A stretch of DNA of 64,000 nucleotides from Nitrosopumilus sp. (GCA_965214775.1 OZ243974.1:1216001-1280000); one strand, 5' to 3'; counted from the first letter of the stretch, positions 10,537-64,000 are shown. Numbers and translations: made by a program. The notes: generated from the sequence alone by a model not told the origin.

Positions 10537-11601
10537 TCTATTGTACGAAAATTAGGTCGCACTAATTTGAGGAGGATTGCAGGGGATTACTTTAGGCTTT
10601 ACCGATCAAGAAAACCGATGGTTGTAAGGCTCGAGGCAAAGCAGATCAGATACGCAGTGACGCAGTGTGCAGGGGGACGAAAGCCCTCGGAGGTGGCCCC
10701 GGAGATAGGCGTCACGACAAGGCACGTCCAGCGGATGTATGCCCGGTTCAGGAAGACAGGCGACACGCACCACGTGCCGCTCAAGCCGGGAAGGAAAAAG
10801 AGCGCCCCGGTTCCCGACGGGGACGTGCGCGCAGTCCTGGAGGAGTACAAACACAGTGCAGCAGGGGTGGTTCATACGGCCAAGAGGCTGCGAAGGCAAC
10901 TCGATATAAGCTACTACGAGGTATACAGGATAATGAAAGAAAACGGGCTGGTGACGCCATCGGCTGCAAAATCAATGCCCAGAAAATACGTCCGTTTTGA
11001 GCGCAAATACTCCAATGCCATGTGGCACGTGGACTGGCATACCATGAAGGATCCGCGCTTTGCAGGGCTCAATTTGGTCACGTTCCTAGACGACTCGTCC
11101 AGGTGCGTGACTGGTGCGGGCCTGTTCAGGGAGGCCACCTCAGAAAACGTCGTGGCGGTCCTGCGGCAGGCCGTGGCCCAGTTCGGCGCGCCTGCCACCA
11201 TACTCTCAGACAACGGCAAGTGCTTTGTCGGGGCGCGCTCGGATCCGAAGAAGAAGAAGAGTCCGCCCAAGGGCGGATGGAGGCCCACTGCCTTTGAGGA
11301 GGAGCTGCTCAACTGCGAAATCGGGCTGATAAACTCCAGGCCGTATCACCCGCAGACCAATGGCAAACTGGAGAGATTCCACAGGAGCATCGAGGAGGAG
11401 ATATGGAACCACAAGAGTCTGTCTGCATACATCGACTACTATAACGAGGACAGGCTGCACTGGTCGCTTGACATCGACAACTACGAGACGCCGCTGCGGG
11501 CATTCTCCGACAGGGAGGCCACAGAAGCGATCAGGAAAAACAACCCAAGATGGATGGAGGAGGACATTGGTGATGGTGCGACATAATTTTCATATAATAC
11601 A
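10537..11601 (+). mobile_element. IS481-family element type A, copy 1; transposase 10618-11586
   Basis: 26-bp IRs TCTATTGTACGAAAATTAGGTCGCAC / TGTATTATATGAAAATTATGTCGCAC; rve motifs WHVD, DDSSR, SDNG, HPQTNGKLER; 17-bp TSD AGTAGTGCTAGCGTTAT. Confidence 0.95.
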
Positions 11602-33646: not shown

Positions 33647-36039
33647 TGTGTTATATGGAAATAATGTCCGCTATTCATTGATGTCCCTCTCCATCCATTT
33701 TGGGTCGGATTTCCTGATCGCTTCTGTGGCAGTTTTGTCCGAGAACGCCATGATGGGTGTCTGGCGGTGGGCTATGTCCAGCCCAAAGTGTAGCCTGCGC
33801 TCGTTGTAATACTTGATGTATGCATCCAAGCTCTCATAGTGGCGGATCTCAGCCTCTATGCTGCCGTGGAACCGTTCCAACTTGCCGTTGGTCTCCGGAT
33901 GGTACGGCCTGGAGTTTATCAGCCCGATGCCCCGATCCAGCAGCTCGGCCTCAAAGGCAGTCGGCGTCCACGTCCCGCGTGGCATGTTCTTCTTGCTGCG
34001 GCCGCCGTTGAAGCACCTGCCGTTGTCAGACAGTATGGTGGCCGGCTTGCCAAACCTGCCTATGGCCTCCCTGAGTGTTATCACCACGTTTTCTGATGTG
34101 GCATCTGCAAACGTCCGTGCCGCCGTGACACACCGGGAGGAATCGTCCAAAAACGTGACTAATTTGAGCCCTCTCAGGCGTGGATCCTTCATTTCGTGCC
34201 AGTCCACGTGCCACATTGCGTTGGAGTACTTGCGCTCATAGCGCAGCCATTTCTTTTGGCCCGACTTGGTATCTGATGCGGCAACGAGTCCCTGCTCCTT
34301 CATTATCCGATATACGCTGTTGTAGCTTATAATGTGACCTGCATCCTGCAGGCGCATGGCAGTGCGCATCACGCCCACGTGCTCTATACAGTGCATGTCC
34401 AAGACTGCCTGCACCTGGCCTGCCGCGGGCTGCGGTGCGGCCTTTCTTCCAGCCTTTTGTTGCACATGCATCTTTCCGGTCCGGCGGTACCTGGCGTAAA
34501 TCCTCCTCACGTGCCGTGGCGTCACCTTCATGTCACGGGCCAGCGACGTGGCGCTCTTTCCGGCATTACGTCCCTTGACGATATACCTGATCTCTTTGTC
34601 CGACATCTTTCTTGTCATGTCTTTATCTGATCGGGGCGTTGTCCGGAATTTTTCCAGAAATCTACCGATAAGCTTATAGATCATAAGCGCAGGATGCGAC
34701 AACCTTATGGATCATAGGATCGACGTCCCCGTATCAATGAAATCAAAGACCAACAAGAAGGAATCCAAGAAGGAATCCAAGAAGGAATCCAAGAAGGAAT
34801 CCAAGAAGGAATCCAAGAAGGAATCCAAGAAGGAATCCAAGAAGGAATCCAAGAAGGAATCCAGCAAGACCAGCAAGAAAAAAAAGTCAGAGTACACGAG
34901 ACCTCCGGAATACTATGCCGAGTACGAGGAAAAAAGGAGAGAGGACAGCAAGAGGTGCGGCATCGGAATCAAAAAGATCCGCAAGATCCTCCTGTCCCTC
35001 CTCCATAACACAGAGCAAGAGGATGAAATTCCCTATCTTCTGTGCGTACTCGACATGGAGTACCGCGGAAACTCGTATCGCAGACACGTCGAATACATGG
35101 AGTCGAATCCTGGTTCAACTAACATGTACGGGCTCAAAAAGGTTCCGGCCAAGTCGACACTGCATGATGCAGCCGTAAGGATAGCTGCCTGGGACAAGTC
35201 GGTGCTAAGATCGGTACTCTCAGAACAGGCAGGCGCAGACGCCAGGGGAACGTTGCTTGGCGACTCTAGCGGTTTCTCCATAATGAGATACCACACATGG
35301 GAGGACGCAAAGAAGGGCGTCATATCCAGGCAGATGTTTGCCAAGCTGCACATACTGTTGGCCCCGCACGGCAAGATTGCCGCCTGCGAGGTGACGCCGG
35401 GCGAATTCCATGATTCCCCGGTGTTCCGTAACGAGCTGCTACCGCAGGTTCCCAACGGCACAGGACACGTGATCCTGGATGCCGCATACGACTCGTATGA
35501 GAACTGCAGGGTCATAGCCGACGGAGGCAGAACCCCAGTGATATGTCCGCGTACAGGATATACGGTTCACGGGTTCAACGCCCGCTCCAAGATGCTAAGA
35601 TGGCACAAAAAGGACCCCGAGGGATTCGAGAAGACGTACCACCAGCGCAGCCTCGTTGAGTCGGCCTTCTCGTCGATAAAGGCAAGGTTTGACTCCACGG
35701 TGCGCGCCATGTCGCTTCCGATGCAGTCGCTCAGGCTTACCCTCAAGGTATTCTGCTACAATCTGGTCAGCTAGGATCCATAATGCCGGTACGGTGGAAT
35801 CGTCCGGCTAGCGGATGCTATGCAGTATGACGTCAAAACACGGGCCATAACTACACAATGCGGGCCGGAGTGCGGATTCGTCTCTATGTTTGCAGTCATT
35901 GCGCCATGATTTTGTACAAATCTCCCCGGAAATCACGTCCTAAAATCACGATTCCGGACAACGCCTCTGATCGGTACAGCCTGAAATAGTCAGCGATCGT
36001 ACGCCTTATCTTAGGCGGACCTAATTTCTGTATAAGACA
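33647..36039 (-). mobile_element. IS481 type B, copy 2 (transposase about 33671-34618), interrupted upstream of its ORF by an IS5
   Basis: Same IRs as 21639-22691; 15-bp TSD TAACCGATTTGACGC. Confidence 0.93.
34635..35965 (+). mobile_element. IS5-family element (IS903-like ends); transposase 34707-35774 with (KKES)n repeat
   Basis: 15-bp IR GGCGTTGTCCGGAAT; 9-bp TSD TCTGATCGG; GDSSG, HDSP, DAAYDS, YHQRSLVESAFS. Confidence 0.92.
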
Positions 36040-39107: not shown

Positions 39108-39808
39108 GCTGCATGTCACATACAGCGTGGGAAGCATCAGAAGAATCCTGCGCACGATGGGATTCTCGCTAAAGACGTCAACCACCAAGCTGGCAGATGC
39201 TGCCGACGCAAAGTCGGTAAGACAGCGGCAGAGGGATGCAAGAACCGAGATTGCGCTTGCAAAAAGGCGCGGATTCAGGATAACCGTACAGGACGAGTCG
39301 ATATTCGTCAGTACGGGAAGGGACGGCAGAAAGTTCTGGTCGCCAGTGGGGGACAGGATCGAGGTGCAACGATCCGGCAGGAGGGAACGCGTCGTGGTAT
39401 ACGGAACGGTTGCAGACGACGGAACCAGGCTGATGCGCACATACGACAAGTTCAACAGCATAAACTTTGTGCGTTATCTCAAGCAGGCGCACAGAAAGTG
39501 GGGAAGGGTTCTGATTGTGATGGACAACGCATCACAGCACAAGACCGGAAGGGTCCGCAGGTACCTGAGGAAAAATCCCGACGTTGTCCTGCTGTACCTG
39601 CCGGTAGCCAGGCCGGAGCTGAGCGCCATAGAGCCAATCTGGAAGGATGCCAAGTACAGGCTGGTCACATCTGCCTTTTACGATACGGCAGATCACCTCA
39701 AAAGAGCCGTCTCAGAATACTTTAGGACGTGTTCCATCAAGGTTGACATCTACAAATATCTTGAGCGCCGCGTGTAATCAGGCGAAATTTTCAATGATCG
39801 TCAGTATA
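39108..39808 (+). pseudogene. IS630 transposase, 3' part plus right end
   Basis: VQDES, VMDNASQH, PELSAIEPIW; stop at 39777. Confidence 0.88.
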
Positions 39809-49295: not shown

Positions 49296-50643
49296 AGAGG
49301 TGATCCGAAATTAGAAATCGAGCGCCCCGTCCGCAGCCGTCCTGCTGCCGCCACTCATTAGGCCGCAGCAGCGATTCTGGCCGGCACCCTATCGTTGACC
49401 AGTCCGCACACGATACTGTTGGCAAGGTCGTACTTTTTGAGTGGGTTTCGGTACCGGTCGCCCATGATCCTGTATGTTTTGACCCTGCGTATGGTGTTCT
49501 CCACGTACACACGTATCTTTGAGTGCGTGATATTGTACTCTTTTTGCGCATCGGTGAGCTTGCCGCCCGGTTTTTTCTTGATGGAAAGATGATGTCCGTG
49601 CCTGCATCCACTAACTGTGCTCCCTGGTATCCGCGATCCATGTAGTGACGAATCTTGTGCTCTTTTGTTGTTGTTGCGGCGCATCACCATCCCCGCTGCC
49701 GCCGGGACACTTTTTCTCCTTCTCCTTCTCCTTTCTTTGGTCGTACCGGAACGTGGGATGCCTCATCTGGTACATCGTGATGTCGTTTACGCGTCCCGGA
49801 GAGTGGGGTGTCTTGTGCACTATGAGTCCGTGGATGTTGGTGGTGTACTGAACCTTGACTGTGTGCCTGCCTGCCTTGCCTGAATAGTGCGATTTCTCCA
49901 TATCCTTTCTCTTGGGCCTGCATATCTTTTGTTCTGAGGCATCTGTCAGGCAGACAAGTTCTGGCAATACGTCCATTAGTTCCTCTACTGAGGATTATTC
50001 TCTTGGTGCCCGAATAGATCTTTTCGGGGATCGACAGGCACCCCTTGAGAACCGGCGCAATCCTGTCTATCGAGCGCGAGACTGATGCCTGCCCGTACGA
50101 GGTCACCTACCCCCATCAGTCAGGCACAAATTAGCATGAATGATTGTAATCTTCGTGCCTAGCTAGCAAGGGGACGTGACCACATACTGCCTGCCCTATT
50201 CCGAACATGGCAGATGCAACATCCTGTGTGACGTACGTCCTGTAGTAGAACAGGGACAGCAGAAGACTCTCCTTCAGAAAGTAACATTCTACAGATTCCG
50301 CGACCGCCAAACCAAGTAGTAGAACAGGGACAGCAGAAGACTCTCCTTCAGGCTGAGGGCAGTCGGGCGTCCTGCACCGATGATGTCACGCTTGCGGTCT
50401 TTTTTGGCAGAAAGCAGAAAGCCTCTTTCTGTCCATCTTTGGGTGTTTTTTTGCCACCTTTGCATACAACAAATCAAATTCGGGGGCAGTCATGCCGGCA
50501 AACATCTTCTTGAATGTCCCGGGGGTTTTTTGACAATTTATCAAATAACTTCATGAATTATGTACATTTTACTAGCGTTTGGATCGGGTTGGTGTACATT
50601 ATGTGTCTGTTTGATCAAAATTTGCTAATTTCGAATCAACTCT
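49296..50643 (-). mobile_element. IS5-family (ISL2-like, DDE_Tnp_4) element, pseudogenised; likely parent of the most abundant MITE
   Basis: Termini AGAGGTGATCCGAAATTAG / CTAATTTCGAATCAACTCT; fragments DASEQ...YSGK, ADxGYQG-like, RVYVENTIRRVK; frameshifts and insertions. Confidence 0.88.
50242..50351. repeat. Exact 36-bp duplication flanking a 38-bp insert inside the IS5 transposase
   Basis: GTAGTAGAACAGGGACAGCAGAAGACTCTCCTTCAG at 50242-50277 and 50316-50351. Confidence 0.95.
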
Positions 50644-50676
50644 CAGATGACGATGTATGCTCGAATCCATCTACTG

Positions 50677-50837
50677 AGAGACGATTCGAAACTAGAAACC
50701 GTGCAAATGCCCGGATTTTTCTGTATCTTTGTCAAGTAATTTTACAGACAGACAACCTGCCATTTGTGATCATTTCAATCGATTTGATGCAAGTTTGCTT
50801 GTACATGATCTGAATCTGCCAATTTCGAATCAGCCCT
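50677..50837. mobile_element. Diverged IS5-type MITE
   Basis: Degenerate IRs and CTG TSD. Confidence 0.7.
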
Positions 50838-51017
50838 CTGGCAATGCCAGTCATCGCCGGGATGGCTGCAGCGCCGTCCAAGTTCTCTATCACGAGCTTA
50901 TTCGGGTTCTGGCAAATGCCAGTCATCGCCGGGATGGCTGCTTGCAGACGACGGAACCAGGCTGATGCGCACATACGAGTTCTGGCAAATGCCAGTCATC
51001 GCCGGGATGGCTGCAGC
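50838..51017. CRISPR. CRISPR-like mini-array: three ~36-bp repeats and two 36-37-bp spacers; no cas genes or AT-rich leader
   Basis: GTTCTGGCAAATGCCAGTCATCGCCGGGATGGCTGC at 50906-50941 and 50979-51014, variant at 50838-50872; spacer 50942-50978 equals 39410-39446. Confidence 0.6.
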
Positions 51018-52611
51018 ACCCGTATGCAGGCGGGGCGTATGTGTGGTGCGTGGGGACCGGGGCGGTCTGGTTTATCGCGTACACGCGGACGTTGTCATAC
51101 CAGTTGTGGTGATCCCAGTCCGTTCCCCATATGTCGCGCATGTATAAGACGATGGTGATCGCGTCGCGCCCGGAGGCGTGTCCGGTTATGTCCGTCGTGT
51201 ACGTCTGCCATCCGGTGTCTGTCGTGCCACCAAGCACCAGGTATGAACGGTGCAGCCAGTTGCCCGAGTCCGCATCCAGTATCGCCATCCGAGTGTTGGT
51301 CACGGAGCTGTCTGGGGTTGCGCCGATGGCCTTGTAGTCGTAGGACAGCACGAGCCTCTGCCCGGACACGTCTAGGGAGGATACGTCGACGGTCTTCTGC
51401 ATGCCAGCATATACCACGATCTCGTCCTCCGTGTGCACGTGTGCCGCAGTCCGGCCGTCAACGGACTGCCTGCCAATCTCGTACTCTGTCGCGGTGCCCC
51501 AGTACGACCAGCCCTCAAGCGAGGAATCAAAGGTGTCGTTGAGCGGCATCGCGTGCCTTGTCTGGTGGACCGCCTCCGTCGGTAGCATCTCGACGGTGCC
51601 CGAGCCGGCCCCCTGCCGCACCGCGTATCCGTCAAAGATCCATTCGGAGTGGCCCGTGATGTCGACCGAGCGCAGGATCAATGTATGGCCGTGCGGCGGG
51701 CGCGAGGCCTCTATGAAAAGGGTCACCTCGTCCAGCTGCGAGCGCGACCAGTCCGGCGTCAGGACTACCGTCAGATCGGAGGCGTCATGCGGGGCCGCAT
51801 GCAAGTGCGGGCGCTCGTATGATGCCAGGACGCCGCCGCCCTTGGATGCTGGCCAGGATTCCGTAAAGTCGGATCGATGCCCATCTTCTCGATCCAGCAG
51901 TGCAGGGCCGCCCTTGGATGCTGGCCAGGATTCCGTAAAGTCGGACGCGGCGTACCTTGAATACCCCCCGTCGCGGAGGTATGCGCCGACGTATGGATCC
52001 GTCTCCAGCCCCACATCCAGCACGATGTCGCGGCCGCGCAGCTCCGCGGCGGGGAATGACTTGAAGAGGTGCATTGTGCCGTGGCCGGAGGTAGTCGACC
52101 AGAGCGCGATGTCAGATAGCGACTGCGGATTCATGGTCGCTACCACCGCGCCGTCTCCCCCCACCATCTGGTACTGCCAAGCCGTGTCCAGATAGGACGG
52201 ATCCACTGTTACCGTTGAAGTGGCAGTTACCGTGTTGCCCGACGAGTCGGTTGCGATCCACAGCACGGTAGTCGTGCCAAACCCTAGCCTTGCCGTCGTG
52301 CTGTGGCTCCCAGTCACGTTGTTTGTCACGATGACGGCGGGATCGTCCGCGTTGGCCACCGAGGCCGTTCCCAGATCTACCGTGGTGAGGATTCCCTTGG
52401 CGGCCACCTTTGTATCCGGCGGGACGGTAAGGACGGGCAATTCGCCGCCTGCCTCGTCGGCGGCCCTCATGCCAGACCAATCATAGGTTACAAGAAACGA
52501 TACGACTATCGCTGCGGCCAGTACGGCTACCAGCACTGCGGCTGTCCTCTCAGGGCGCAAACGCCACGGCGTGCGGCTCGCATCCGGCGTTACGGAATGG
52601 GATTCCGACAT
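50923..52611 (-). CDS. Membrane-anchored exoprotein with a HYR-like domain and probable carbohydrate-binding beta domains; 3' end runs into the mini-array
   Basis: N-terminal TM; GTTTVLWIATDSSGN; duplicated DFTESWPASKGG. Confidence 0.8.
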   Translation of the reverse strand: MSESHSVTPDASRTPWRLRPERTAAVLVAVLAAAIVVSFLVTYDWSGMRAADEAGGELPVLTVPPDTKVAAKGILTTVDLGTASVANADDPAVIVTNNVTGSHSTTARLGFGTTTVLWIATDSSGNTVTATSTVTVDPSYLDTAWQYQMVGGDGAVVATMNPQSLSDIALWSTTSGHGTMHLFKSFPAAELRGRDIVLDVGLETDPYVGAYLRDGGYSRYAASDFTESWPASKGGPALLDREDGHRSDFTESWPASKGGGVLASYERPHLHAAPHDASDLTVVLTPDWSRSQLDEVTLFIEASRPPHGHTLILRSVDITGHSEWIFDGYAVRQGAGSGTVEMLPTEAVHQTRHAMPLNDTFDSSLEGWSYWGTATEYEIGRQSVDGRTAAHVHTEDEIVVYAGMQKTVDVSSLDVSGQRLVLSYDYKAIGATPDSSVTNTRMAILDADSGNWLHRSYLVLGGTTDTGWQTYTTDITGHASGRDAITIVLYMRDIWGTDWDHHNWYDNVRVYAINQTAPVPTHHTYAPPAYGCCSHPGDDWHLPELVCAHQPGSVVCKQPSRR

Positions 52612-53112
52612 CTTCCCAGCCCCAAACTATGCGCCGCCGTATTGCCTGACTTTGACATATTTTTTAGCAACGGGATCTCGTTTTTATCTTTTTTGCGTAG
52701 GCGCCGTTTATCTATTGTGCCGAAATCATTTCGCACCGGCATAAGGAGGCTGGCAAGGACTGCATTATGCTGTACCGATCAGCAAAACCGATGACAAGGC
52801 TTGGAGAGAGACGTGTCAAATACGTAACGAGTCAGTGCGGCAGGGGAACATGGTAATACGCATTTCCGTAAACAAAAGAAGTGGGGGATGGCTGGGCATG
52901 CGCAGATGGCAGTACAAACTGCAGTGGAGGCGCATGAGACAGTATTCTCAGGTCCGGATACAGCCCAAAGAACTTGTCGACGAGCTCCTCTTGAAAGTTT
53001 GCCTGGCGCATCTCGTCCTCCGCGCTGACTTCGGGACATAACACCTCGAAGAATGCTGTCATATCATGCATTGATTACTCCGGGCTGCTCACTCCGCTCA
53101 GCGGATCCTCAG

Positions 53113-53249
53113 AGAGGTGATCCGAAATTAGAAGCCGTGCGAATTTTTCAAGTAATTTCACAGATAATCTGTATTTTGTTGGTGTTTTGAGCCGTTTTAT
53201 GCAAATTCGTTCACAAATAATCAGAGTCTGCTAATTTCGAATCAACTCT
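53113..53249. mobile_element. IS5-type MITE; further copies at 56918-57193 (with nested GGGGTTGTC MITE 56995-57124, TSD GATGTTTTG) and 62820-62956
   Basis: Terminal IRs and CAG TSD. Confidence 0.9.
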
Positions 53250-53439
53250 CAGGCTGATGTGCAGGCTCAGAAAGACAAACACCCGCAGGAGGTTCGGTCT
53301 GCAAGGCCATAGGATGGAACCTTGAGGTGCTAAACAGGATGGAGTGTGCTGCAAGGATTGGCGTGCCGGTGGAGGCAGCCTGAGGTGAATTAGGCGACAA
53401 CCCCCATTTTATCACCTCCTTTTTGATCAAAGTGTGTGT

Positions 53440-53557
53440 GCCCAACTGAACGGAAAACCCCCATTCGCCTCGATTATGTGGCATTTCGTCGTCCGTCTAC
53501 TCTGAGCCAGTCTCTTACGCGCCCTCATGTGTGGCAAGTTTACTTCGGCTCTTGGGC
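53440..53557 (-). ncRNA. Candidate IS110 bridge RNA, copy B (orphan left end about 53405-53735; ORF lost after the ATG)
   Basis: Homologous to 36183-36381, including TTTGATCAAAAAGGAGGTGATAA.ATG; compensatory stem changes. Confidence 0.6.
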
Positions 53558-53861
53558 CCAACACGGATAATATGGCGTCCGCTACGGATAAGATTTGATG
53601 TATGAGGTTACGTCCCCTTGCCGGCTAGGCACGGAAATCATAATTGTACATGCCAATTCATGCCTGATTGATAGGGGTAGGTGACCACATACGATTTGAT
53701 ATAACGTCTCTTACCATCCACCCGCCATCTTGGGATTCTACTTGGGCACAAAATTCCAACCCAAAGACGATCTGAGTTTCATGTCCCAAAGATTACACAG
53801 AACCTGCAAGGCCAATCTTTATATATTTTATGTAACAATAATTGCCTATAGGTAAATTATC

Positions 53862-54677
53862 GTGACACAGAATACAAACATTGGGCTCCAAAATAGACTC
53901 CTTTTGGAACTAGCAGAAAAGGAGATTAACGTGTTTAATTTTGATGATGCAAAAAAGGTTCTGCAGGCCAATAATTCAGCAACAAGGCATGTTCTTATGA
54001 ACCTGACAAGGAAAAGACGGTTACAGAGAATAGAGCGAGGAAAGTATCTTCTAATTCCAGAAAGGGCAGGAATAGAGGGGCATTGGGCTGAATCTTCCTG
54101 GGTTATAGTTCCACATCTGATTGACACATATTATGTCGGCTTTTGGACTGCAATGAATTTTTGGGACATGACAGAACAGATTCCTTACACTGTATTTGTT
54201 GCAACGACTAAAAGAAAACGAAATCTGGAATATTTGAAACAAAGGTTTGAATTTGTAACACTGTCAAAGAAAAAATTCTTTGGGTTCGTCGAGCAGAAGG
54301 CAGGTAACAGAGAAACTTTCAATATCTCATCAAGGGAAAAAACAATCGTAGACGGTTTAATGCATCCCGAATATTGTGGAGGACTAGCAGAAGTAACCAA
54401 AGCAATGTGGAATGCACGAAAAGAGACTGACTGGAAAACCGTTCTTGAAATGGCAGAAAAAGTAGAAATTAACGCTGTTTTAAAGCGATTGGGATATGTG
54501 CTGTCTGTTCTTGACATCGAAGGAAGAATTTCAGAAAAAATAAGGAAAAAAATAAAAAAAAATCCTTATCACTATCTTGATCCTACTGCAAACAAAGACA
54601 GGATTGAAACTTCAAAGGAACATGGATTGTACATCAACAGATCAAAAGACGAGTTATTGGCGTGGATGGATTACTAG
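53862..54677 (+). CDS. Type IV toxin-antitoxin antitoxin, AbiEi family
   Basis: wHTH RIERGKY, MTEQIP..VFVAT, SSREKTIVD, KRLGY. Confidence 0.9.
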   Translation: MTQNTNIGLQNRLLLELAEKEINVFNFDDAKKVLQANNSATRHVLMNLTRKRRLQRIERGKYLLIPERAGIEGHWAESSWVIVPHLIDTYYVGFWTAMNFWDMTEQIPYTVFVATTKRKRNLEYLKQRFEFVTLSKKKFFGFVEQKAGNRETFNISSREKTIVDGLMHPEYCGGLAEVTKAMWNARKETDWKTVLEMAEKVEINAVLKRLGYVLSVLDIEGRISEKIRKKIKKNPYHYLDPTANKDRIETSKEHGLYINRSKDELLAWMDY

Positions 54678-55441
54678 TGGATGAAAAATTACTTAGAAAA
54701 TTAGCAAGCAAATACAAAATACCGTTAGGAACGTTAGAAAAAGATTACGCATTGACAAACATCCTGTCAGTAATCGCCGGTTTTCCAGAATTAGACAAAA
54801 TGGTTTTCAAAGGTGGCACTGCATTGAAGAAGATGTTTTTTGAAGATTTTCGCTTTTCTGAAGACCTTGATTTTGTTTGTTTTGAAGATGTTTCTGACAA
54901 TTTTATGAATTTTGTGAAAAACAGTATGGGCAATCTTGATGTAGAATTTACAGAGATATCAAACGTAGAAAGAAAGGGCAAGAGTTTCAGGTTCAAAGTA
55001 AAGTATGGTCAATCTACAGGTGCCAGAACAAGCATCAAGGTGGATTTGAGTTTGCGTGGTGATGTGATACTAAAACGCCCTGCTAAGCCGGTTTTACACT
55101 TCTATGAGACCCTTCAAACCCCGTTTTTCGTGCCAGCAATGGCACTTGAGGAGGTTATGGCTGAAAAAATCAGGGCCATAACATACACAAAACATCCCAG
55201 ACATTTGTATGATATCCATTACCTACATCACCAAGGAATTAAGATCAATTCCGACATGGTTAGAACAAAGATAAAGTCTGTTTACAATGAAGATTTTGAT
55301 TTGGACAAGATGAAGGAAAGATTGCCTGAAAAAGCAAGAGATTGGATGACTGATTTAAGACCTCTTCTTCCTGTCCTGCCACCGTCTTTTGACGATGTTT
55401 CAAAAGAGGTACTCAAGGTAATTACCAGTGCAATGAAATAG
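54677..55441 (+). CDS. Type IV toxin-antitoxin toxin, AbiEii nucleotidyltransferase
   Basis: EKDY, FKGGTAL, RFSEDLDF, AEKIRA, RHLYDI; start uncertain (54662-54677). Confidence 0.92.
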   Translation: MDEKLLRKLASKYKIPLGTLEKDYALTNILSVIAGFPELDKMVFKGGTALKKMFFEDFRFSEDLDFVCFEDVSDNFMNFVKNSMGNLDVEFTEISNVERKGKSFRFKVKYGQSTGARTSIKVDLSLRGDVILKRPAKPVLHFYETLQTPFFVPAMALEEVMAEKIRAITYTKHPRHLYDIHYLHHQGIKINSDMVRTKIKSVYNEDFDLDKMKERLPEKARDWMTDLRPLLPVLPPSFDDVSKEVLKVITSAMK

Positions 55442-55493
55442 CGCAATCACACGTAACATCTTGGACTGGAAGTTTAGGCACGAATTTTGCCGC

Positions 55494-55790
55494 TGTGTTA
55501 TATGAAAATTAGGTTCGTTAGTCATTGATGTCCATCTCCACCTATTTTGGGTCTTTTTTTCTGATCGCTTCTGTGGCCTCCCTTGCCAAAAAGGCCTGCA
55601 GTGGCGTCTCACACTTGTCGATATCCAGTGCAAAGTGCAGTGGTGAGGACCCCAAAAAAGAAGGAACGATCTGCAATGCACACTTTTTGAATAAGGAGGT
55701 CGAATCACAAATATGAGTAAGAAAATACGGAGTGTACAGGACAAGATAGGGATAGTCATGGAGCACATCAACACCAATAAGGACGCGCAC
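55494..55790. mobile_element. IS481 3' remnant (minus strand, about 55494-55640) abutting an IS3 5' remnant (plus strand, about 55640-55790)
   Basis: HFALDIDKCETP...ATEAIRKKDPK plus IR; MSKKIRSVQDKIGIVMEH matches the ORF at 60957-61442. Confidence 0.75.
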
Positions 55791-55895
55791 ACGAGTCGCC
55801 TCATGGATCCCGGCGGGGCAGACGGGCAGCAAAAAGCAAGGCCGGCAAGGCGCCTGTCTGGATTCGGGGCAGCTGCCAGGTACTGCGGCTCTAAG

Positions 55896-56888
55896 ATGTC
55901 CAAGTTCGGTGGGGCCCTATACGCATCTTGCACGGCAAAGGACAGGATCAGGGTCGCCTTTATCTACAAGCCGTCTTGGAGATACTATGACCGAAACAAC
56001 TCCATCAACAACAGGTACTATTTCTTTTTTCAGGCGCTACGGAGAAACAGGAACCTCCAGATGGGCTATTTTCCCGCAGAGCATACGTTTGATACGGCAA
56101 AGCTCAGGGGAAAGTACGATGTCATACTGTGTACGAACAGCGAGATCAGCACGCCGCAGCTAAACGGCGCCCGGGATCTGGGCATCCCGGTGATTGCCCA
56201 CACGCACGACCCACACCACATCAAAACGTTTGATCTAGTCGGCTTTCATGAAAAGTACGGGGTGGACTATTACTTTAACTTCATACCTGCCAGTTATTTT
56301 TACAAGTACCTTCCAAGGGACTTTGGGTACAGGATGATAACTTATGGTGTCGAGCCAGATCTGCCACATCTGCCCGCATTCGCAGACCGGATAAGGGATC
56401 GCATTCTGCTTACGGGGACGCTCTGGAAGGGGAACGCAAACGACCCTGTCCAAAACCCCTATACGCTGAGGAGGACGTGCAGGGATCTGCCGTACGTCGA
56501 CTATGCCGGGGTCGTGCCAGGCACCATCCAGTACGTGCACGCAGGACATCCGGACTTTATAACACACCTGTCACGGTACAGGGCAACCATAACCGCAACG
56601 AGGTACTTTCCTACCATCAAGTACTACGAGTCCACGGCTGCCGGATGCCTGACGTTCATGGAGTTCTCAGAGGAAAGCCACGGCGGGTACCTAGGATTCC
56701 GGGACGGGGAGAGCGCAGTGTTTATCGACTCTAAAAACTACAAAAAAAGGTTCGAGGAATACTTGGCCTCTCCAGATGATCCAAAGTGGGCGCAAATAGC
56801 GGCGCGCGGAAAAAGACACACCATGGAGAACCTCACAAACGACAAGGCGGCCGAGTCCCTTGTGGACCTGATGCGGGAGCTGATCTGA
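55896..56888 (+). CDS. GT-B glycosyltransferase (CgeB-like)
   Basis: HDPH, KYYESTAAGCL, GF.DGESAVFID, IAARGK; the longer ORF from 55713 begins in an IS3 remnant. Confidence 0.8.
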   Translation: MSKFGGALYASCTAKDRIRVAFIYKPSWRYYDRNNSINNRYYFFFQALRRNRNLQMGYFPAEHTFDTAKLRGKYDVILCTNSEISTPQLNGARDLGIPVIAHTHDPHHIKTFDLVGFHEKYGVDYYFNFIPASYFYKYLPRDFGYRMITYGVEPDLPHLPAFADRIRDRILLTGTLWKGNANDPVQNPYTLRRTCRDLPYVDYAGVVPGTIQYVHAGHPDFITHLSRYRATITATRYFPTIKYYESTAAGCLTFMEFSEESHGGYLGFRDGESAVFIDSKNYKKRFEEYLASPDDPKWAQIAARGKRHTMENLTNDKAAESLVDLMRELI

Positions 56889-57242
56889 GTCTTTGCATGT
56901 TTTTTGCCTCTTCCCAGAGAAGCGATTCGAAATTAGAGACCGTACGAATTTTTCAAATAATTTCACAGATAATCTGTATTTTGTTGATGTTTTGGGGGTT
57001 GTCGCCTAATTCCACTTGTTTGACTCAATCTGCACGTTTTTCTGAATTTCTGCCCCTTTGCATGCCTGATCCATGTGGCATCTCAGCGGTTCTCAGGAAT
57101 TCTGGCGAATTAGGCGACAACCCCGATGTTTTGAGCTGATTTACGCAAATTCGTCCACAAATAATCAGAATCTGCCAATTTCGAACCAACTCTCAGGGGC
57201 GAGATAAGGATGGCAGAAATGAGCGGCTGGTTGATGTAGATG

Positions 57243-59744
57243 TTACGTATACTTGACGTCCCCGTGTGCCGTACCACCGTTTCCTCCGCCCGAAGAGTCC
57301 GACAGATCGCCCTCGAACTCAAGGTGCATCAGGAGCGCACCATCATAGTCTCCCATACACGCATGATCACCGGTAAGCGCGTCGACGGTGCCGGTGCCTT
57401 TGGTGTCTGACACGGTAGCCATCTCCACATGGCATTTGTGTACGTCCGATATGTAGTCGGCAGGCAACCGTGCCGAGTATATCATGATATCATCCAGCAC
57501 GGTATCCTGTGCAGGATTTCTGCCGATGCTACTAGCACCTATCGCAAGCCGGTGATCATTTGCAACGGATCCTGCCAGCGACGTGTTGTACCAGCGCAGA
57601 TTGTCGATCTGTCCGTCCACGTACACGTCGAGTCCGCCCCTGTCTCCTGAGCCATCATAGGTAAACACGATGTGGTGCCAGCGGCCGTCGGTCATGCCGG
57701 AGAACGTGCCGACGGTGATCTGGCTTTGCGCATCGTCTGCCATCCGGAATGAAATCCCGCCATATGGGTTGCCCCATACGGTGATGCCCTGCTGCCTGGC
57801 CGCGTCAGCCTTTGAGATGATCAACGAGTCAGGGTTGCCGGGTTCGAGCATCTTGATCCAGAAGGCTATGCTGAACGGATCGGCCCCACCGAGATCGAGT
57901 CCGGGTGCGGCGGCAAGCGTGACGTATGCAGTGCCGTCAAGGTGGAGGGCCCGGCCGGCGGGGCCGTATGCAGGCAGGGACGTCCACCCGGGCGGGTTCC
58001 ACACCGTCACCTCCATACTGCTACTGAAATGTCGGTGGAACTTGGATGGTATCGGCGTGTCTGGTTTTGAGGGACCCTGAAACTCGATTACCCTATCACT
58101 GCCATCGTATATGTCAACATACCGCTGTGACCAGTCCGTTTCCGGAGACGCCGTCGCATTGCCCCCATCACCACCGCCGGTCTCCAGCACGTTCCTATGA
58201 AACTTGACCCTGTCGACAGAGTCGATCATTACGATCTTGTTGGTTTTGTGCGGACGCGTGTCGTACAGGTCATATCTGTCCAAGCTTGAATGGGTAATAT
58301 TGTAGCCGTGCAGCCGCCATGATTCGTTAATCAGCCACATGATTATTTCCGCGTCGGAGCCGGCATAGTTTTGCAGCGCAAAGAACAGTGCGCTAGGATA
58401 GGCAGACATCGTGTCCCAATGCACAAACACTCCCGACGTGGACAGGCCGAGCGCCGCGACGGCAAGCAAGGCAGCCAGCAACAGCGTGCGCTGCCTCCCC
58501 GGATCCTGTATTCTGGCTGATGCCCTTTCAATCCCTGCGCCGATCAGTGCGGCGGCGGCAATGCACATCACAGTCCACAACATCCCCAGATGGTAGAGGT
58601 ACGTCACGAACCCGATTGATCCAAAGAACAGCAGGACGGGTGCGGCCCACAGCAGCAGAAACCTGTTGCGTGAGGCCACCGCAAAGGCCAGTCCTGCTGT
58701 GCCCAGCGATACCATGACCGGATCCATCTCGAACAGCAGTATCGTGGCCACCAGCATGATCGCAGGACGGGTCAGTATGTCAGGATCCTGGTCATATACG
58801 AGGGCGATCGACGTGTATTGCTGCAGCAGATCCAGCTTGGACTGACTGCCCCTGTCTGTGTGCCACAGGACGCCGTCCACCCACCCGTCAAAATCACCTG
58901 CCAGTGCCGCAGAGGCGGGCCAGGCTGCCGCAATCAGGATTGCGGGCACAAGCCACAGCAGTACGCGCCCCGGCCTCCTGCCGGCCGACCAGACCAGAGC
59001 GAGGACAAGCGGGATCATGACAAGCGAGGGAACCTTGACAAGCATGGCGCATCCCATGCAGACACCAGACAGGATGATCAGCAGTCGAACCCTGCCCGGA
59101 GCCGGCGGCAACAGCGGCTCCCCATCCCCACTTCCTTGGAATGGGCCGCGTGCGTACATGGCAAGCAGAACGGAGGACAGGACGAACGGGAGGAGGATCG
59201 AGTCCAGTACAACCAGTCTGAGCGTCAGCGATACGGGCATTACCGCAAACAGGACGGCTGCAATCGGCGCTGCCCTGCGCCCGAAGCCCCTCTCGGCTAT
59301 CTTGTATATCAAAAAGGTGTCCAAGACGGCAAGCAGGCCCATGAGGATGCGCGGTGCCCCGTAAAGCATCCCAAGCGAGGATGCGCCCTCCGGTGTTACA
59401 AAGGAGTCGGGATATCCGGTGGCATGCAGGAATCCGGCCAGCATGGTGATAGAAGAGATGTCATGATATTCGTATGGGTAGGCAGATCCGGTGGCATGCA
59501 GGAATCCGGCCAGCATCGTCCAGCCAAGGAACGGGTGGTCGTGCCTGTCTGACAGTATCTTGTGGTTCAGGACGTCTAGAGCCTGGCCTATGTAGGTTGA
59601 CTCGTCTGGGTGCCACGACGGAAACCCTGCCGTGTTCCACATGTGCGTGTATGCAGAAAGCACCAGTATTGCTACAAGCAGGAGGAGTGGCCCGTGCCCC
59701 GACAGGCGCCCCGTGCGAATGGTGGTACGTCCGAGGCCAAGCAT
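57243..59744 (-). CDS. GT-C-LamG fusion, paralogue of 17637-20033
   Basis: Colinear similarity along the full length; extra in-frame TMLAGFLHATG duplication. Confidence 0.88.
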   Translation of the reverse strand: MLGLGRTTIRTGRLSGHGPLLLLVAILVLSAYTHMWNTAGFPSWHPDESTYIGQALDVLNHKILSDRHDHPFLGWTMLAGFLHATGSAYPYEYHDISSITMLAGFLHATGYPDSFVTPEGASSLGMLYGAPRILMGLLAVLDTFLIYKIAERGFGRRAAPIAAVLFAVMPVSLTLRLVVLDSILLPFVLSSVLLAMYARGPFQGSGDGEPLLPPAPGRVRLLIILSGVCMGCAMLVKVPSLVMIPLVLALVWSAGRRPGRVLLWLVPAILIAAAWPASAALAGDFDGWVDGVLWHTDRGSQSKLDLLQQYTSIALVYDQDPDILTRPAIMLVATILLFEMDPVMVSLGTAGLAFAVASRNRFLLLWAAPVLLFFGSIGFVTYLYHLGMLWTVMCIAAAALIGAGIERASARIQDPGRQRTLLLAALLAVAALGLSTSGVFVHWDTMSAYPSALFFALQNYAGSDAEIIMWLINESWRLHGYNITHSSLDRYDLYDTRPHKTNKIVMIDSVDRVKFHRNVLETGGGDGGNATASPETDWSQRYVDIYDGSDRVIEFQGPSKPDTPIPSKFHRHFSSSMEVTVWNPPGWTSLPAYGPAGRALHLDGTAYVTLAAAPGLDLGGADPFSIAFWIKMLEPGNPDSLIISKADAARQQGITVWGNPYGGISFRMADDAQSQITVGTFSGMTDGRWHHIVFTYDGSGDRGGLDVYVDGQIDNLRWYNTSLAGSVANDHRLAIGASSIGRNPAQDTVLDDIMIYSARLPADYISDVHKCHVEMATVSDTKGTGTVDALTGDHACMGDYDGALLMHLEFEGDLSDSSGGGNGGTAHGDVKYT

Positions 59745-59835
59745 GGGCTATCCTCACCCGTCATCCAAATAACTGTTCGGAGGGAATTATTTTGTTGCAT
59801 AACCCTGACTGAAATTTGGAATTTGGTCGAAAATC

Positions 59836-59926
59836 GTACAACATCAGGTTCTACGTAAAATCAGGCGTAAACAGGAAATTTGGATGAATACTTTACGTCT
59901 AGAAAGTTGAGGATCTGATGTTGTAC
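59836..59926. mobile_element. IS66-derived MITE; second copy at 61558-61639
   Basis: Ends GTACAACATCAG match the IS66 IR; the second copy has a near-perfect 8-bp TSD. Confidence 0.75.
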
Positions 59927-59997
59927 GATTTTTTTGATCTGTACTGATTACGCAAAGTCTATTGAAAATTACGTGATGGTTTGAAGCAAAGAGGTGA

Positions 59998-60915
59998 TCA
60001 TAGCGTCAAGTTTCGGAGTTGCTGGATCCATTTGCGCTGTATCTTTTTGTAGGTCGGGCCGGCAATTGAGAAGATTATCTTCTGCTCCTTTAGTGGCATC
60101 TTCCCATCGTAGAGTCTGATGGCGTCCGGATCTATTGAGCGATACGGATCTGTGTCTCCTATGGCGTACCCGTTCTCGTCAACGTATTTGTGCTCCATCA
60201 GGTGATGGTTCAGCATCTTGGTGTCAAACGGGATTTTCAGGAACCTGCATATGTGTCTGATGTTTCTTTCCGGCGAGGTACACAGATCCTCGTACAGGAT
60301 CAGACGGAGTTTGTAGCCCATCTCGTCATACCGGAAGAAGGATTCGGTCTTTATCTTCCAGTACAACGCCACCTTTGCTGCAAACGAGAACTCGCCGGCA
60401 TTTTTTATTATGGACAGGTCTCCAGCGTACTTTTCATTGAAGCCAGGAATTGTCTCGGGGTAGAGGGAATCCACATATCCTTCCCATGAGTTGGCCCAAG
60501 ATGAGTATCGTGGGTTTGTCTTTAGCCTCTTCAGGGAAAGGCACACGTCCCTGGGATCCCTGACTAGGAACAAGACAAGATGGTTGTTGTACCTGAACGG
60601 AAATGGAAACTTGTGGTAGCTTATGTCCCTTGCCACCCCGTCTGTATTGTCAAACTGCTCTGTCAGACAGGGGCACTTGAAGGCCAGAACTCTTTTTCCC
60701 AGACTTTTCTGCTCGCGAAGCTCCCCTTCGAGCACCGTCTCATCTGCAAAGTAATCATAGGAGGTCGGCTCGTCATGGCAGCTGATCCCGCTGTGGCACT
60801 CGAGAATAAGATGCATCAGCGTTGTTCCAGAGCGCTGGCATCCCACAATGAGGCAGATGTCAGAGTGCTCGTCGACCAGCCGGTCAAACAAACGCGATCT
60901 GTTGACATCGGCCAC
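59998..60915 (-). CDS. Sulfotransferase family protein
   Basis: 5'-PSB GCQRSGTT, 3'-PB VRDPRDVCLS, YEDL. Confidence 0.92.
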   Translation of the reverse strand: MADVNRSRLFDRLVDEHSDICLIVGCQRSGTTLMHLILECHSGISCHDEPTSYDYFADETVLEGELREQKSLGKRVLAFKCPCLTEQFDNTDGVARDISYHKFPFPFRYNNHLVLFLVRDPRDVCLSLKRLKTNPRYSSWANSWEGYVDSLYPETIPGFNEKYAGDLSIIKNAGEFSFAAKVALYWKIKTESFFRYDEMGYKLRLILYEDLCTSPERNIRHICRFLKIPFDTKMLNHHLMEHKYVDENGYAIGDTDPYRSIDPDAIRLYDGKMPLKEQKIIFSIAGPTYKKIQRKWIQQLRNLTL

Positions 60916-61099
60916 CTCGCTGGGCAGGGGGAACTGATCCCAGTTGACGGATGCGTTTATCTGGTCCCCCTCCCAAGCTTGAAGACAGCATCTCCCCTAG
61001 CACAATCAAGAGGATGCGGGTCTCCCCGGCACTCTCCCTCGTCCTGTAAACTTTCAATTGTATTGACGGTTTTACCCGTTGCCCCGCTGTACTGCAATG

Positions 61100-61515
61100 C
61101 CATGTGCGTGCTCCAGCCCTTGTTCTTTAACTCCGTTACTACAGCCACCTTTTGCCTGCCTGCCTCTAGGGTTTTTTTCAATACCGCGTTGGCCACGGCG
61201 TATTCCCCGACTATCTTCTTGAGCGACTCGATCTCTTTTTGCTGCCGCTCCTCTGTTGACTTGTGGCCCCTGCCTGATAGTGACGCGCGTCCGGCCTGCA
61301 AAAAGCGCTCCCTCCACTTGTAAAACGTCCTGGGGGAGAGGTTGTGGCGGCGGCACAGCTCTGCCGTCTCGATGCTGGTGTTGGTGAGGTGCTCCATGAC
61401 TATCCCTATCTTGTCTTGCGTACTCTGTGTTTTCCTAGTCATATTTGTGATTCGACCTCCTGACTCAAAAAGTGTGCGAACAAAGGCGTTCCTATTCTAG
61501 AGGGTATCGCACCAC
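61100..61515 (-). mobile_element. IS3-family remnant (OrfA from 61442; OrfB missing)
   Basis: HTH AELCRRHNLSPRTFYKWRERF, then leucine zipper and LKK frameshift region. Confidence 0.8.
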
Positions 61516-61893
61516 CACCCACCGTACCGGAGATGCGGAACTTGGCCCACATATTCCGTACAACATCAGGTTCTATTTATGCTGGCAAGCAAATACTTCC
61601 TAGATTCCTAGGCGGTTTAAATAGGATCTGATGCTGTACCGTATTCCTGACATGCCTGTAGCTGATGTCCAGCCCTTGGAATATCTGCGTGACCGGTACC
61701 GCCCTTTTTTCCCTGCCTTTCTATGTATCGAAGCGACTTTTCCTCCGGTCTTTTACTCATGTTTTTTGATCGGTACAGTCTAAAATAATCCTTCAAAGTA
61801 CGCCTGATCTTAGTCGGAATTAATTTTTGTACGACACAAACAGACTGTTACAAAGACATGTTTTATAAAATGTGAGGAGAACACCAGCGTACC

Positions 61894-62760
61894 TTGGTTG
61901 CTCTGAAAAACATTCTCCCTGCACTGCGCATAAGGAAGGACACCTGCCTGAGTCTGCTGACCGTGTGCATAAAGACGTTCTGTCGGCCCAGCACGCTTTA
62001 TGCCACTCTTGACAACATCATTGTCAAGAGCAGGTATCATGATCTGAGCATCCTAGTAGCTGATGACAGCGATGACGATTACAAGAAAAAAAACGGGGAG
62101 ATTGTGCGGCATTTTAGAGGAATAAACAAAAACCTGAGGTTGCTGGAGATGCCGTTTGACGTAGGCCTCTCCAGGGGCAGAAACCTGCTTGTCGAAAACT
62201 GCAAGACAAAGTATGCGCTTATGCTAGACGATTCCAGACACTTCACTAGGGACACCAAGATTGAGAAAATGGTAGATTTTCTAAGGGAGACGGACTATCA
62301 TTTGGTGGGCGGGGTCATTCCCGGCAGAGGCAGAATCGACTCTCATTATACCGGCATGTTTGAAAAAATACGCCATGACAGCAAAAGCAACACGGTCAAT
62401 ATTTGGGTAGATACCATCCTAGAGAGAATCGATTATGACAAGATTCCGGTATTCAAGACGAATGTTACGCTGAATTGCTTTATTGCAAAAACCGAACTCC
62501 TGAGAAGGTGTAGATGGCGCGACGAGCTGAAAACCATGGAGCATGAAAACTTTTTTTTGGACTGGTACAACATGGGCTACAGATGCGCAGTCTCATTCCT
62601 GTGTCCTTTTGTAGAAAACTCTGCTGAAAGCAGGCAGTATCCGGCAAAATACCGCCACCTCAGATACGACCCTGCAAGAAACAACAAGACAGATCTAGGC
62701 TCCAGAGGAACCATACCGCTGGTAAACATCAACTATAACAGAGACGCGCTGCACTGCTGA
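61894..62760 (+). CDS. GT2 glycosyltransferase resembling the B4GALNT-type catalytic domain
   Basis: IKTF.R, VADDS, MPFDVGLSRGRN, TKY.L.LDD, LVGG, EHENFF. Confidence 0.8.
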   Translation: MVALKNILPALRIRKDTCLSLLTVCIKTFCRPSTLYATLDNIIVKSRYHDLSILVADDSDDDYKKKNGEIVRHFRGINKNLRLLEMPFDVGLSRGRNLLVENCKTKYALMLDDSRHFTRDTKIEKMVDFLRETDYHLVGGVIPGRGRIDSHYTGMFEKIRHDSKSNTVNIWVDTILERIDYDKIPVFKTNVTLNCFIAKTELLRRCRWRDELKTMEHENFFLDWYNMGYRCAVSFLCPFVENSAESRQYPAKYRHLRYDPARNNKTDLGSRGTIPLVNINYNRDALHC

Positions 62761-63060
62761 GTGTCAGCTGCATGCTGCATACGCATTGTATGCTGCATCT
62801 GCACGCCGTGGCGGAGCAGGGAGTTGATTCGAAATTAGCAGATTCTGATTATTTGTAAACGGATTTGCACAAAGCAGCTCAAAACACCAACAAAATACAA
62901 ATTATTTGTGAAATTACTTGAAAGATTCGTACGGTTTCTAATTTTGGATCACCTCTCTGATGACATGCCTTAGTACACACATCAAAAATTGGAACATAAT
63001 TTTGGCATATTGTGCCTATTTTGGCACAAAAATGTTTGATTTTCAACTGTGCGTACTAGT

Positions 63061-63171
63061 GATCTTCTTGTCCGACATCTTTCTTGTCATGTCTCTGCCT
63101 GATCGGTACAGTCTGAAATGCTCGGCGACCGTACGCCTTATCTTTAGGCGGATCTAATTTTTGTACAAAAC
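63061..63171 (-). mobile_element. IS481 5' remnant; a similar left-end remnant lies at about 61745-61837
   Basis: Left IR plus MTRKMSDKK. Confidence 0.75.
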
Positions 63172-63223
63172 ACGGCCCCGGTTTGCGTTATATGTTTATA
63201 GAGAACTGCGCATACGGCAAATA

Positions 63224-64000
63224 TTGAAGATTATAGCATACCTGTGCGTGTACAACGAGGAGGACATACTGGAGGAGAACGTTCTTTACCACACCGCGCA
63301 GCAGGGGGTGGACATAGTCGTAATAGACAACGGATCAACTGACGCAACTGCCGATATAATCAAAAGGCTGGCAGGAGAGAACAGGATCCTAGATCATGTC
63401 AGGTACACAACAGAAAGATTTTCACTACAGCAGCTGACTAGGGCCGGGTTTGAGCTGGCCAGAAAGCACAATCCGGACTGGATAATACACCTGGATGCCA
63501 GCACGTTTCTTGAGAGCGGTTCCGGATCGGATGTGCCGCTAAGCGAGCAGATACGGAAGGCCGACGAGGCAGGATACAACGTCATCAGCCTGGCATCATA
63601 CGACTTTTACCCGACTGAGAGGGACGATCCGGACGAGTCCAGCGTATTCAAGCGGATGAAGTTCTATGCCAACACAATATACACAAACAGACTACAGGAG
63701 AAGATATTCAAGAACCTTGACGGACTGCTGACCCACAATGGACACAAGATCATATTTCCCAAATCCGCCGAAAAGAAGATATCTGACAAAAAGGCAGTCA
63801 TGCGGCATTACATATTCCGGTCTGCGCCCCACGGCGTAAGAAAGATCCTTGAGAGAAAGAACCGGTGGGATGCCGCCGAGCGTGCAGACAACCACCACAC
63901 CCACTATGACGGCTTTCTTGGATTTGAGGAGGAAATCCCGGTTCCATCTAGGCTCCTTGCGTTCAAAGACGAAGAGGGCGGATGGGACAACTCGATAACA
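63224..64000 (+). CDS. GT2-family glycosyltransferase, truncated by the window end
   Basis: From TTG 63224: MKIIAYLCVYNEEDILEE...VIDNGSTD...DWIIHLDA. Confidence 0.85.
   Translation, partial: MKIIAYLCVYNEEDILEENVLYHTAQQGVDIVVIDNGSTDATADIIKRLAGENRILDHVRYTTERFSLQQLTRAGFELARKHNPDWIIHLDASTFLESGSGSDVPLSEQIRKADEAGYNVISLASYDFYPTERDDPDESSVFKRMKFYANTIYTNRLQEKIFKNLDGLLTHNGHKIIFPKSAEKKISDKKAVMRHYIFRSAPHGVRKILERKNRWDAAERADNHHTHYDGFLGFEEEIPVPSRLLAFKDEEGGWDNSIT

Follow-up and report, generated by a model that had tools for sequence, protein, structure and literature searches.

Spacer-sized inserts in ~36-bp target duplications on a Nitrosopumilus chromosome: probable scars of off-target Cas1-Cas2 integration

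Results

Host sequence is duplicated around unique inserts at four loci

We analyzed a 64,000-nucleotide stretch of DNA from Nitrosopumilus sp. (GCA_965214775.1 OZ243974.1; hereafter the window), which spans positions 1216001-1280000 of a single 2,833,656-bp contig (C1; genome code G000). Four loci in the window consist of direct repeats flanking a unique insert with a period of 72-74, and we argue here that they are probably scars of off-target spacer integration by Cas1-Cas2, the adaptation enzymes of CRISPR systems. A sequence-only reading of the window had picked out the repeats at 50242, 51835 and 59414 and those of a mini-array (50835-51014). An exact-match scan, together with direct reading of the sequence, confirmed all of them and agreed with the division of 50242-50351 into 36 + 38 (Table 1).

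The locus at 50242 lies in an insertion sequence (IS) copy of the DDE_Tnp_4/HTH_Tnp_4 family, an assignment taken from an intact paralog. At 59414, the surrounding open reading frame (ORF), 57243-59744, matched PMT and Laminin_G_3 in Pfam, in keeping with its earlier label of GT-C-LamG; for the gene at the 51835 locus, labelled HYR, Pfam returned no match. The mini-array is the only three-repeat site among the scars. Its repeats are unrelated to the canonical CRISPR repeats; ORF 50923-52611, on the minus strand, has the first of them at its 3' end. Tandem Repeats Finder, run on the window, reported none of the four main loci because the middle of each is unrelated to its flanks.

Table 1 Features of the duplication-insert loci and related sequences in the window (positions counted from the first nucleotide of the window).
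Feature	Positions	Remarks
Target-site duplication copy 1, 36 bp	50242-50277	Inside DDE_Tnp_4-type IS copy; exact repeat, period 74
Spacer-sized insert, 38 nt	50278-50315	Without match elsewhere on the chromosome
Target-site duplication copy 2, 36 bp	50316-50351	Exact repeat
Mini-array repeat 1, 35 nt	50835-50869	5' end with 1-nt deletion and 2 mismatches relative to repeats 2 and 3
Mini-array insert 1, 36 nt	50870-50905	From sequence reading
Mini-array repeat 2, 36 nt	50906-50941	Exact 36-bp repeat, period 73
Mini-array insert 2, 37 nt	50942-50978	Identical to a sequence with several copies on the chromosome
Mini-array repeat 3, 36 nt	50979-51014	Identical to repeat 2
Duplication copy 1, 39-bp exact run	51835-51873	Inside 562-aa ORF 50923-52611 (minus strand); period 72
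Insert, 33 nt by exact-run boundaries	51874-51906	Elsewhere partial match only (26 nt, 96%)
Duplication copy 2, 39-bp exact run	51907-51945	From exact-match scan
Duplication copy 1, 31-bp exact run	59414-59444	In minus-strand ORF 57243-59744, a PMT/Laminin_G_3 glycosyltransferase
Insert, 41 nt by exact-run boundaries	59445-59485	Period 72
Duplication copy 2, 31-bp exact run	59486-59516	From exact-match scan
Candidate protospacer source for mini-array insert 2	39410-39446	37/37 identity
tRNA-Phe 5' part and decayed copy of its 36-39 nt, 74 bp apart	10434-10546	tRNA-Phe at 10401-10472, minus strand

The same geometry recurs across the chromosome

Spaced repeats agreeing at 30 or more of 34 positions were sought over the whole contig for each period between 45 and 130, leaving out both CRISPR arrays, tandem arrays and short-period repeats. 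Periods 70 to 76 yielded 4, 4, 13, 16, 12, 6 and 2 loci, respectively; the other periods held mostly 0-2, the highest counts being 3 (period 51), 4 (period 63) and 5 (period 82). The sharp genome-wide peak that the sequence-only reading had put forward as a check was recovered: periods are 72-74, repeats ~36-37 bp and inserts ~36-38 bp. Exact 33-40-bp repeats at other periods proved to be coding repeats in multiples of three, mostly from a 156-bp family, or IS-internal repeats. The chromosome as a whole is very rich in repeats: among random 336-bp segments, 26% are spanned at their centre by a paralog, and the 156-bp coding-repeat family is large.

From the 58 catalogue rows at periods 69-77, nine were dropped: an IS-internal period-75 repeat that took up six rows, one for each copy, a collagen-like coding repeat (2133530), a repeat family with the same arrangement in its paralogs (2288313) and a 23-bp repeat (1207545). 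The remaining 49 candidate events have a period of 73 ± 1.45 (standard deviation, sd) and an insert mode of 36-38 nt. The exact repeat most often measures 36 bp (14 events) or 37 bp (10 events), which together account for 24 of the 49, and it falls within 34-39 bp in 37 events. These 37 form our core set, with averages of 36.5 for the exact repeat and 36.4 for the insert.

The two repeat copies are identical in 41 of the 49 pairs, and the class of 70-85% identity, where older decayed events would lie, shows no excess at periods 72-75. The events are also unevenly placed, with 8 of 50 positions falling within 45 kb at C1:1266-1311 kb (scan statistic p = 0.0006). This hot spot includes window positions 50000-64000 and contains IS copies and large surface-type genes.

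Paralogs preserve the empty sites

For each event, we built the sequence with one repeat copy and without the insert and searched it against the chromosome. Paralogs running through the junction without the insert were found for 16 of the 49 events, and the alignments showed clean gaps of exactly 70 and 76 bp. At the 50242 event, 15 paralogous IS copies carry the target once and free of the insert, and two paralogs (83% identity) cross the 59414 site in the same way. The 51835 event has no paralog on the chromosome; two homologs of its protein, found in other sources (BLASTP identity 51% and 38%), lack exactly the 24 added residues, which open with a repeat of the adjacent residues. Empty alleles, proposed earlier as something to look for, therefore exist both as paralogs and as homologs in other organisms.

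The empty sites also bear on whether an ordinary CRISPR array, a tandem repeat or a miniature transposon could have decayed into each of these loci. Their period is the same as that of the arrays, and one further pair in the window (131-209) does read as a plain tandem duplication. Nevertheless, the repeats consist of host gene or IS sequence with empty paralogs, are mutually unrelated and stand only marginally nearer to canonical repeats than random sequence does, and the inserts are unrelated to the repeats, have no inverted ends and differ at every site. We therefore give such remnants next to no probability.

Several events alter proteins. Those at 51835 and 59414 each add 24 codons in frame, and the C-terminus of the protein encoded by ORF 50923-52611 departs from its homologs where the frame enters the mini-array. 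Across the chromosome, the events that long open frames survive have a period of 72 or 69, which keeps the frame (contig coordinates 617292, 974020, 1267835, 1275414 and 200048; 1267835 and 1275414 are the window events 51835 and 59414). We read this bias as a footprint of selection, the survivors in long intact genes being mostly in-frame insertions of 72 bp. Other long frames are broken, mostly by frameshift and several of them in IS copies; one of 1064 codons, at 1281865, is closed by a period-72 insert.

Many inserts are copies of the chromosome itself

We searched the inserts against the same chromosome, accepting matches of at least 90% identity over at least 85% of the length. By this mapping, which the sequence-only reading had proposed, 16 of the 49 inserts match elsewhere on the chromosome, six of them at 100% over their full length. 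Mini-array insert 2 is identical at 37/37 positions to C1:1255410-1255446 (window 39410-39446) and to C1:2632665-2632701, with 12 matches in total. The flanks of the sources are unrelated to the flanks of the inserts; therefore, only the spacer-sized piece was copied. Where an insert has a unique source, that source tends to lie near the CRISPR-cas locus, with 5 of 12 at most 200 kb away (expected 1.7, p = 0.019) and two ~20 kb away. None of the 78 canonical spacers of the two arrays matched the chromosome, and none had a match longer than 17 nt outside the arrays.

The inserts are mutually unrelated, as are the duplicated segments. Terminal inverted repeats, which the sequence-only reading had likewise found wanting, are at chance level (0-5 of 8 terminal matches). 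A miniature inverted-repeat transposable element (MITE) or IS element was rejected as the identity of the inserts on these two grounds, the missing mutual similarity and the chance-level terminal matches.

A single cas1-cas2 pair and a motif at the half-sites

Cas genes and canonical arrays of matching period, absent from the window itself, were found elsewhere on the chromosome: an intact cas4-cas1-cas2 set beside an array with a 37-nt repeat, and an orphan array with a 36-nt repeat. On the chromosome, from a 99.9%-complete genome, Cas1 and Cas2 gave a single match each, next to one another at C1:2425744-2426972. Both genes (cas1, 232 bits; cas2, 58 bits) are without internal stops and lie beside cas4 and the array. 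We classify the system as type I-B from its gene content because the operon holds Cas7/Csh2, Cas5b, Cas3, Cas6b and Cas4 along with Cas1 and Cas2. The adjoining array has 68 repeats of 37 nt and a spacer mode of 35. In the orphan array (C1:1977219-1977988), repeats are 36 nt long and spacers 36-39; the array's region, 1977219-1978060, contains 11 repeats and one degenerate repeat, and no cas genes were found with NCBIfam and Pfam in the 11 kb upstream. Over both arrays, canonical spacers measure 34-39 nt. A casposon was rejected as the source of the events, given that the only Cas1 homolog sits in the cas operon, that the ~37-nt inserts are without inverted ends and that the duplication is ~36 bp.

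We then compared the ends of the duplications, taking as a half-site, for either strand, the 5' end of the segment that is duplicated, so that the 37 core events gave 74 half-sites. Against background, positions -4 to +7 stand out, with +3 as the exception (p 8e-6 to 6e-3, chi-square), and positions -12 to -5 do not. The consensus, shared by both strands, reads G at -3, C/G at -2 and not A at -1, followed within the duplication by G at +1, T/C at +2, G/T at +4, C/G at +5 and A at +6 and +7, with a weaker A at +8. This motif resembles the leader-repeat junction of the only cas-linked array, which is GGCT/GTCGTAAT (slash at the junction); the complements of both canonical repeat ends are GTTTCAAT and GCTTCAAT. 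Similarity to the whole repeat was rejected as a targeting rule, being only marginal over random, and we prefer the short half-site motif as the rule for that reason.

Relatives with and without cas1

The relative G014 has five Pfam Cas1 matches in its genome, the one closest to the G000 Cas1 being 46% identical, and its contig C1 (1,861,824 bp) carries three arrays with 37-, 36/37- and 30-nt repeats. The same scan of this contig returned 4, 7 and 4 solitary events at periods 72, 73 and 74 and none at 68-71 or 75-82. The repeats of these 15 events measure 36-41 bp (36-38 in 14, 41 in one) and the inserts 32-37 nt, mostly 34-37. Two more events at period 66-67 (31 + 35 and 33 + 34) fit the 30-nt-repeat array. 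For the analyses below, we used 18 events, namely the 15 and three at periods 62-67; one 51 + 11 pair (942820) was dropped.

The G014 events repeat the pattern seen in G000. Empty paralogs exist for 9 of the 18, with 2-71 copies each; unlike in G000, the enrichment of events in repeated DNA is significant (p = 7e-5). Five of the 18 inserts match the same contig, four of them exactly, and two sources lie ~7-18 kb from an array; none of 303 canonical spacers matches at full length. The half-sites repeat the core of the motif (C/G at -2, C/T at -1, T at +2 and A at +7). Two IS copies carry independent hits in the same target sequence, and at C1:1737748 a clean 37 + 37 event has an insert with an exact source and a target that resembles part of a tRNA gene by eye. 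Separately, G014:C1:1821579-1821760 holds a degenerate three-repeat mini-array whose repeats are like the 30-nt canonical repeat, ~60 kb from the main arrays.

The arrays of the two genomes also raise the question of whether another integrase with a ~36-bp stagger made the scars, either from a lost adaptation module, for example one serving the orphan array, or as an unrecognised enzyme. The geometry of ~36 + 37 is closer to the orphan array (36 + 36-39) than to the cas-linked one (37 + 35). Moreover, the orphan-array repeat is related to the repeat of a 140-repeat G014 array that has its own cas1 adjacent, a gene without counterpart in G000. On the other hand, the 41 identical pairs and the missing tail of decayed events indicate recent activity, only a single cas1 is detectable in the 99.9%-complete genome, and the half-site motif fits the I-B leader-repeat junction in both genomes. 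Taken together, we regard another integrase as unlikely.

The relative G010 (98% complete) has no Pfam Cas1 match. In this one cas1-less genome, we found 0 events at periods 71-77 in the 960,076 of 1,360,076 bases scanned; the exact repeats it has at period 72 come from coding repeats of short period or from a plain tandem duplication of 72 bp. This result bears on break repair or template switching, which might paste short chromosomal fragments without a dedicated integrase. Such a process would account for inserts that copy chromosomal sequence, and comparison of the long repeat runs with the insert sources revealed, at a few junctions, 3-5 nt common to the insert end and the target flank. 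However, it does not give a fixed ~36-bp duplication along with a fixed ~37-nt insert (period sd 1.45), it does not produce a two-fold symmetric site motif, and the scanned part of G010 is free of scars at the relevant periods. We consider break repair very improbable.

The scars in public sequence data

Among the 16 public runs listed, fourteen, from nine studies, contain at least part of the window, and none is an RNA run. We compared four public runs as assembled contigs. In X1 and X5, which come from different studies, contigs end inside repeat copies at 50935, 50985/50988, 51864, 51916 and 59443, as expected of duplications longer than the assembler's word. These breaks lend weak support to the view that the scars are not peculiar to one assembly. 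A 72-74-bp 'skip' joint, which would mark an empty allele, was not present among the 15 joints listed out of 40.

Could the duplications be assembly or sequencing artefacts? The comparison covered assembled contigs, with no single read seen across a scar, and to that extent the suspicion is fair. Yet the X1 and X5 contigs stop where true repeats would make them stop, and artefacts would not yield exact copies of distant loci together with a site motif, an in-frame bias and the same pattern in a second genome. An artefactual origin is thus extremely improbable.

Other repeats in the window

Two further pairs named by the sequence-only reading did not hold up as members of the group. The first, 131-209 (read as 36 + 7), is a 43-bp unit repeated 1.84 times and probably arose by simple tandem duplication; the genome has a few more such two-copy units, at periods of 39-47 bp. 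That it is a spacer-poor integration scar remains conceivable. The second, 10431-10536, is doubtful: it pairs the 5' part of tRNA-Phe with a decayed copy, ~28/36 after a 1-nt indel (by eye). Neither genome-wide scan recovered this pair (10431-10546), which could go back to an early integration or be what is left of an attachment site.

The window also contains two perfect tandem arrays of the same 33-bp unit (1742-2310 and 3417-3715; 17.2 and 9.1 copies), 1.1 kb apart. At 34754-34863, a 12-bp unit, CAAGAAGGAATC, is repeated 9.2 times, and the unit recurs at several chromosomal places on both strands.

Discussion

Most of the checks suggested by the sequence-only reading turned out as it had foreseen. 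The length peak, the empty sites and the self matches support the proposal that an integrase with a fixed ~36-bp ruler has inserted fragments throughout this genome. With a probability of roughly 0.87, we interpret the scars as natural off-target spacer integration by Cas1-Cas2, the process known as neo-CRISPR formation, with ~49 events in one chromosome. Cas1-Cas2 is here a candidate catalyst, named on the strength of the gene set, the lengths and the site motif.

The proposed mechanism is as follows. The chromosome's own Cas1-Cas2, helped or not by Cas4, would carry a spacer-sized fragment to a pair of half-sites resembling the leader-repeat junction, where two staggered strand transfers would take place ~36 bp apart. 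Gap filling would then double the ~36-37 bp that separate the cuts, leaving one copy on each side of the ~36-38-nt fragment. A second integration at one site would produce a two-spacer mini-array such as that of the window.

Several observations weigh against this interpretation. The enzyme is linked to the scars indirectly. The off-target geometry, ~36 + 37, departs by 1-2 nt from the cas-adjacent array (37 + 35), and the orphan array fits better. A PAM-like TTN (PAM, protospacer-adjacent motif) stands beside the protospacers in only 7 of 14 cases (post hoc test, p = 0.017), so that the PAM which the sequence-only reading had suggested seeking beside the insert sources appears as a partial signal; canonical spacers of G000 and G014 had no match in the sequences searched and hence supplied no native PAM for comparison. 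The duplicated segments are hardly closer to whole canonical repeats than random 34-39-mers are (mean best identity 13.1 vs. 12.5, p = 0.04). Exact repeat runs span 28-46 bp despite the tight period, and those of 43-46 bp exceed chance extension. Events in G000 are not significantly enriched in repeated DNA (16/49 vs. 26% of random windows, p = 0.19). As for the comparisons, the cas1-less G010 is AT-rich by eye, was scanned over 71% of its length and holds an unexplained period-70 pair (40 + 30), and the public-run evidence consists of assembled contigs only.

Off-target integration by Cas1-Cas2 would also make sense of where self DNA is found. A self spacer in a working array is lethal. Inserts flanked by host sequence probably do not become working crRNAs (CRISPR RNAs), which would explain why self-derived inserts survive off-target and not in the arrays. 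The difference between 16 self inserts among 49 off-target events and 0 among 78 array spacers is what autoimmunity predicts.

The age of the scars is informative as well. With 41 of 49 pairs identical and no decayed tail, the activity appears recent; this points to a burst not long ago or to rapid reversal, the 36-bp copies recombining with each other. A broader reading, to which we give somewhat less than an even chance, takes the adaptation module as a chronic genome-wide mutator: little beyond two short half-sites ~36 bp apart would be needed, self fragments, preferentially from near the CRISPR-cas locus, would enter genes and IS copies, and the scarcity of old scars would reflect quick reversal. 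If so, the module would be a source of 24-codon in-frame protein insertions, knock-outs and seeds of new arrays, and the scars would form a natural, selection-light record of Cas1-Cas2 capture and integration sites.

If the scars are indeed off-target integrations, they offer an estimate from nature of what it costs, in mutations, to keep an adaptation module and a view of what the integrase captures before autoimmunity purges self spacers. The intrinsic site preference of the enzyme would be readable from ~100 half-sites, and the mini-array would be a two-spacer neo-array caught in the act. Small "questionable CRISPRs" returned by array finders may likewise include real integration scars.

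The process itself is known; what appears to be new is its scale in nature, together with the self origin of inserts and the archaeal I-B context. Our literature search, which left supplements and most subscription journals outside its range, found no report of such natural events at this scale or in this lineage. The accessible part of a mobile-element survey of the lineage makes no mention of them (PMC6563490).

The scars can be compared with several known systems. Like casposons, they are proposed here to arise by Cas1-family chemistry with a target-site duplication; casposons are kilobase-sized, with inverted ends and duplications of ~14-15 bp. Canonical type I-B adaptation proceeds by leader-proximal integration with a ruler-defined duplication of the repeat. 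The scars share with it the gene set, which is present, and the duplication and insert lengths, which agree within 1-2 nt, but they are without leader or canonical repeat, have at most a partial PAM and contain largely self DNA.

Integration outside CRISPR loci has also been studied with an archaeal enzyme. Pyrococcus furiosus Cas1-Cas2 integrates in vitro at non-CRISPR sites with repeat-like features, and positions just upstream of the cut matter, according to one report (PMC6698737); another describes histones as lowering such off-target integration (PMC13748974). Those experiments used plasmids in vitro and 30-nt repeats, whereas the events described here are chromosomal and heritable, have ~36-bp duplications and show a different motif.

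In naive adaptation of E. coli, Levy et al. are said to have reported hot spots of self-DNA sampling in 2015. The insert sources in G000 are similarly enriched near the CRISPR-cas locus, although our numbers are small, the organism and subtype differ, and we read fixed off-target scars rather than array sequencing.

The closest parallel is the E. coli type I-E system, in which Nivala, Shipman and Church reportedly described, in Nat Microbiol in 2018, off-target integration and 'neo-CRISPR' genesis with over-produced Cas1-Cas2 and supplied oligonucleotides. In both cases, a spacer-sized insert sits in a repeat-length duplication of non-CRISPR host sequence, the sites resemble the leader-repeat junction, and a second hit can start an array. 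Published accounts describe chromosomal off-target events under over-production of E. coli Cas1-Cas2 and, for natural genomes, only 'circumstantial' evidence from two other species (10.1101/148544, PMC7054753). Unlike those of E. coli, the events here are natural, fixed and archaeal I-B, number ~49 with 15-17 more in a relative, and include many inserts that are exact self copies, with the empty sites preserved in paralogs.

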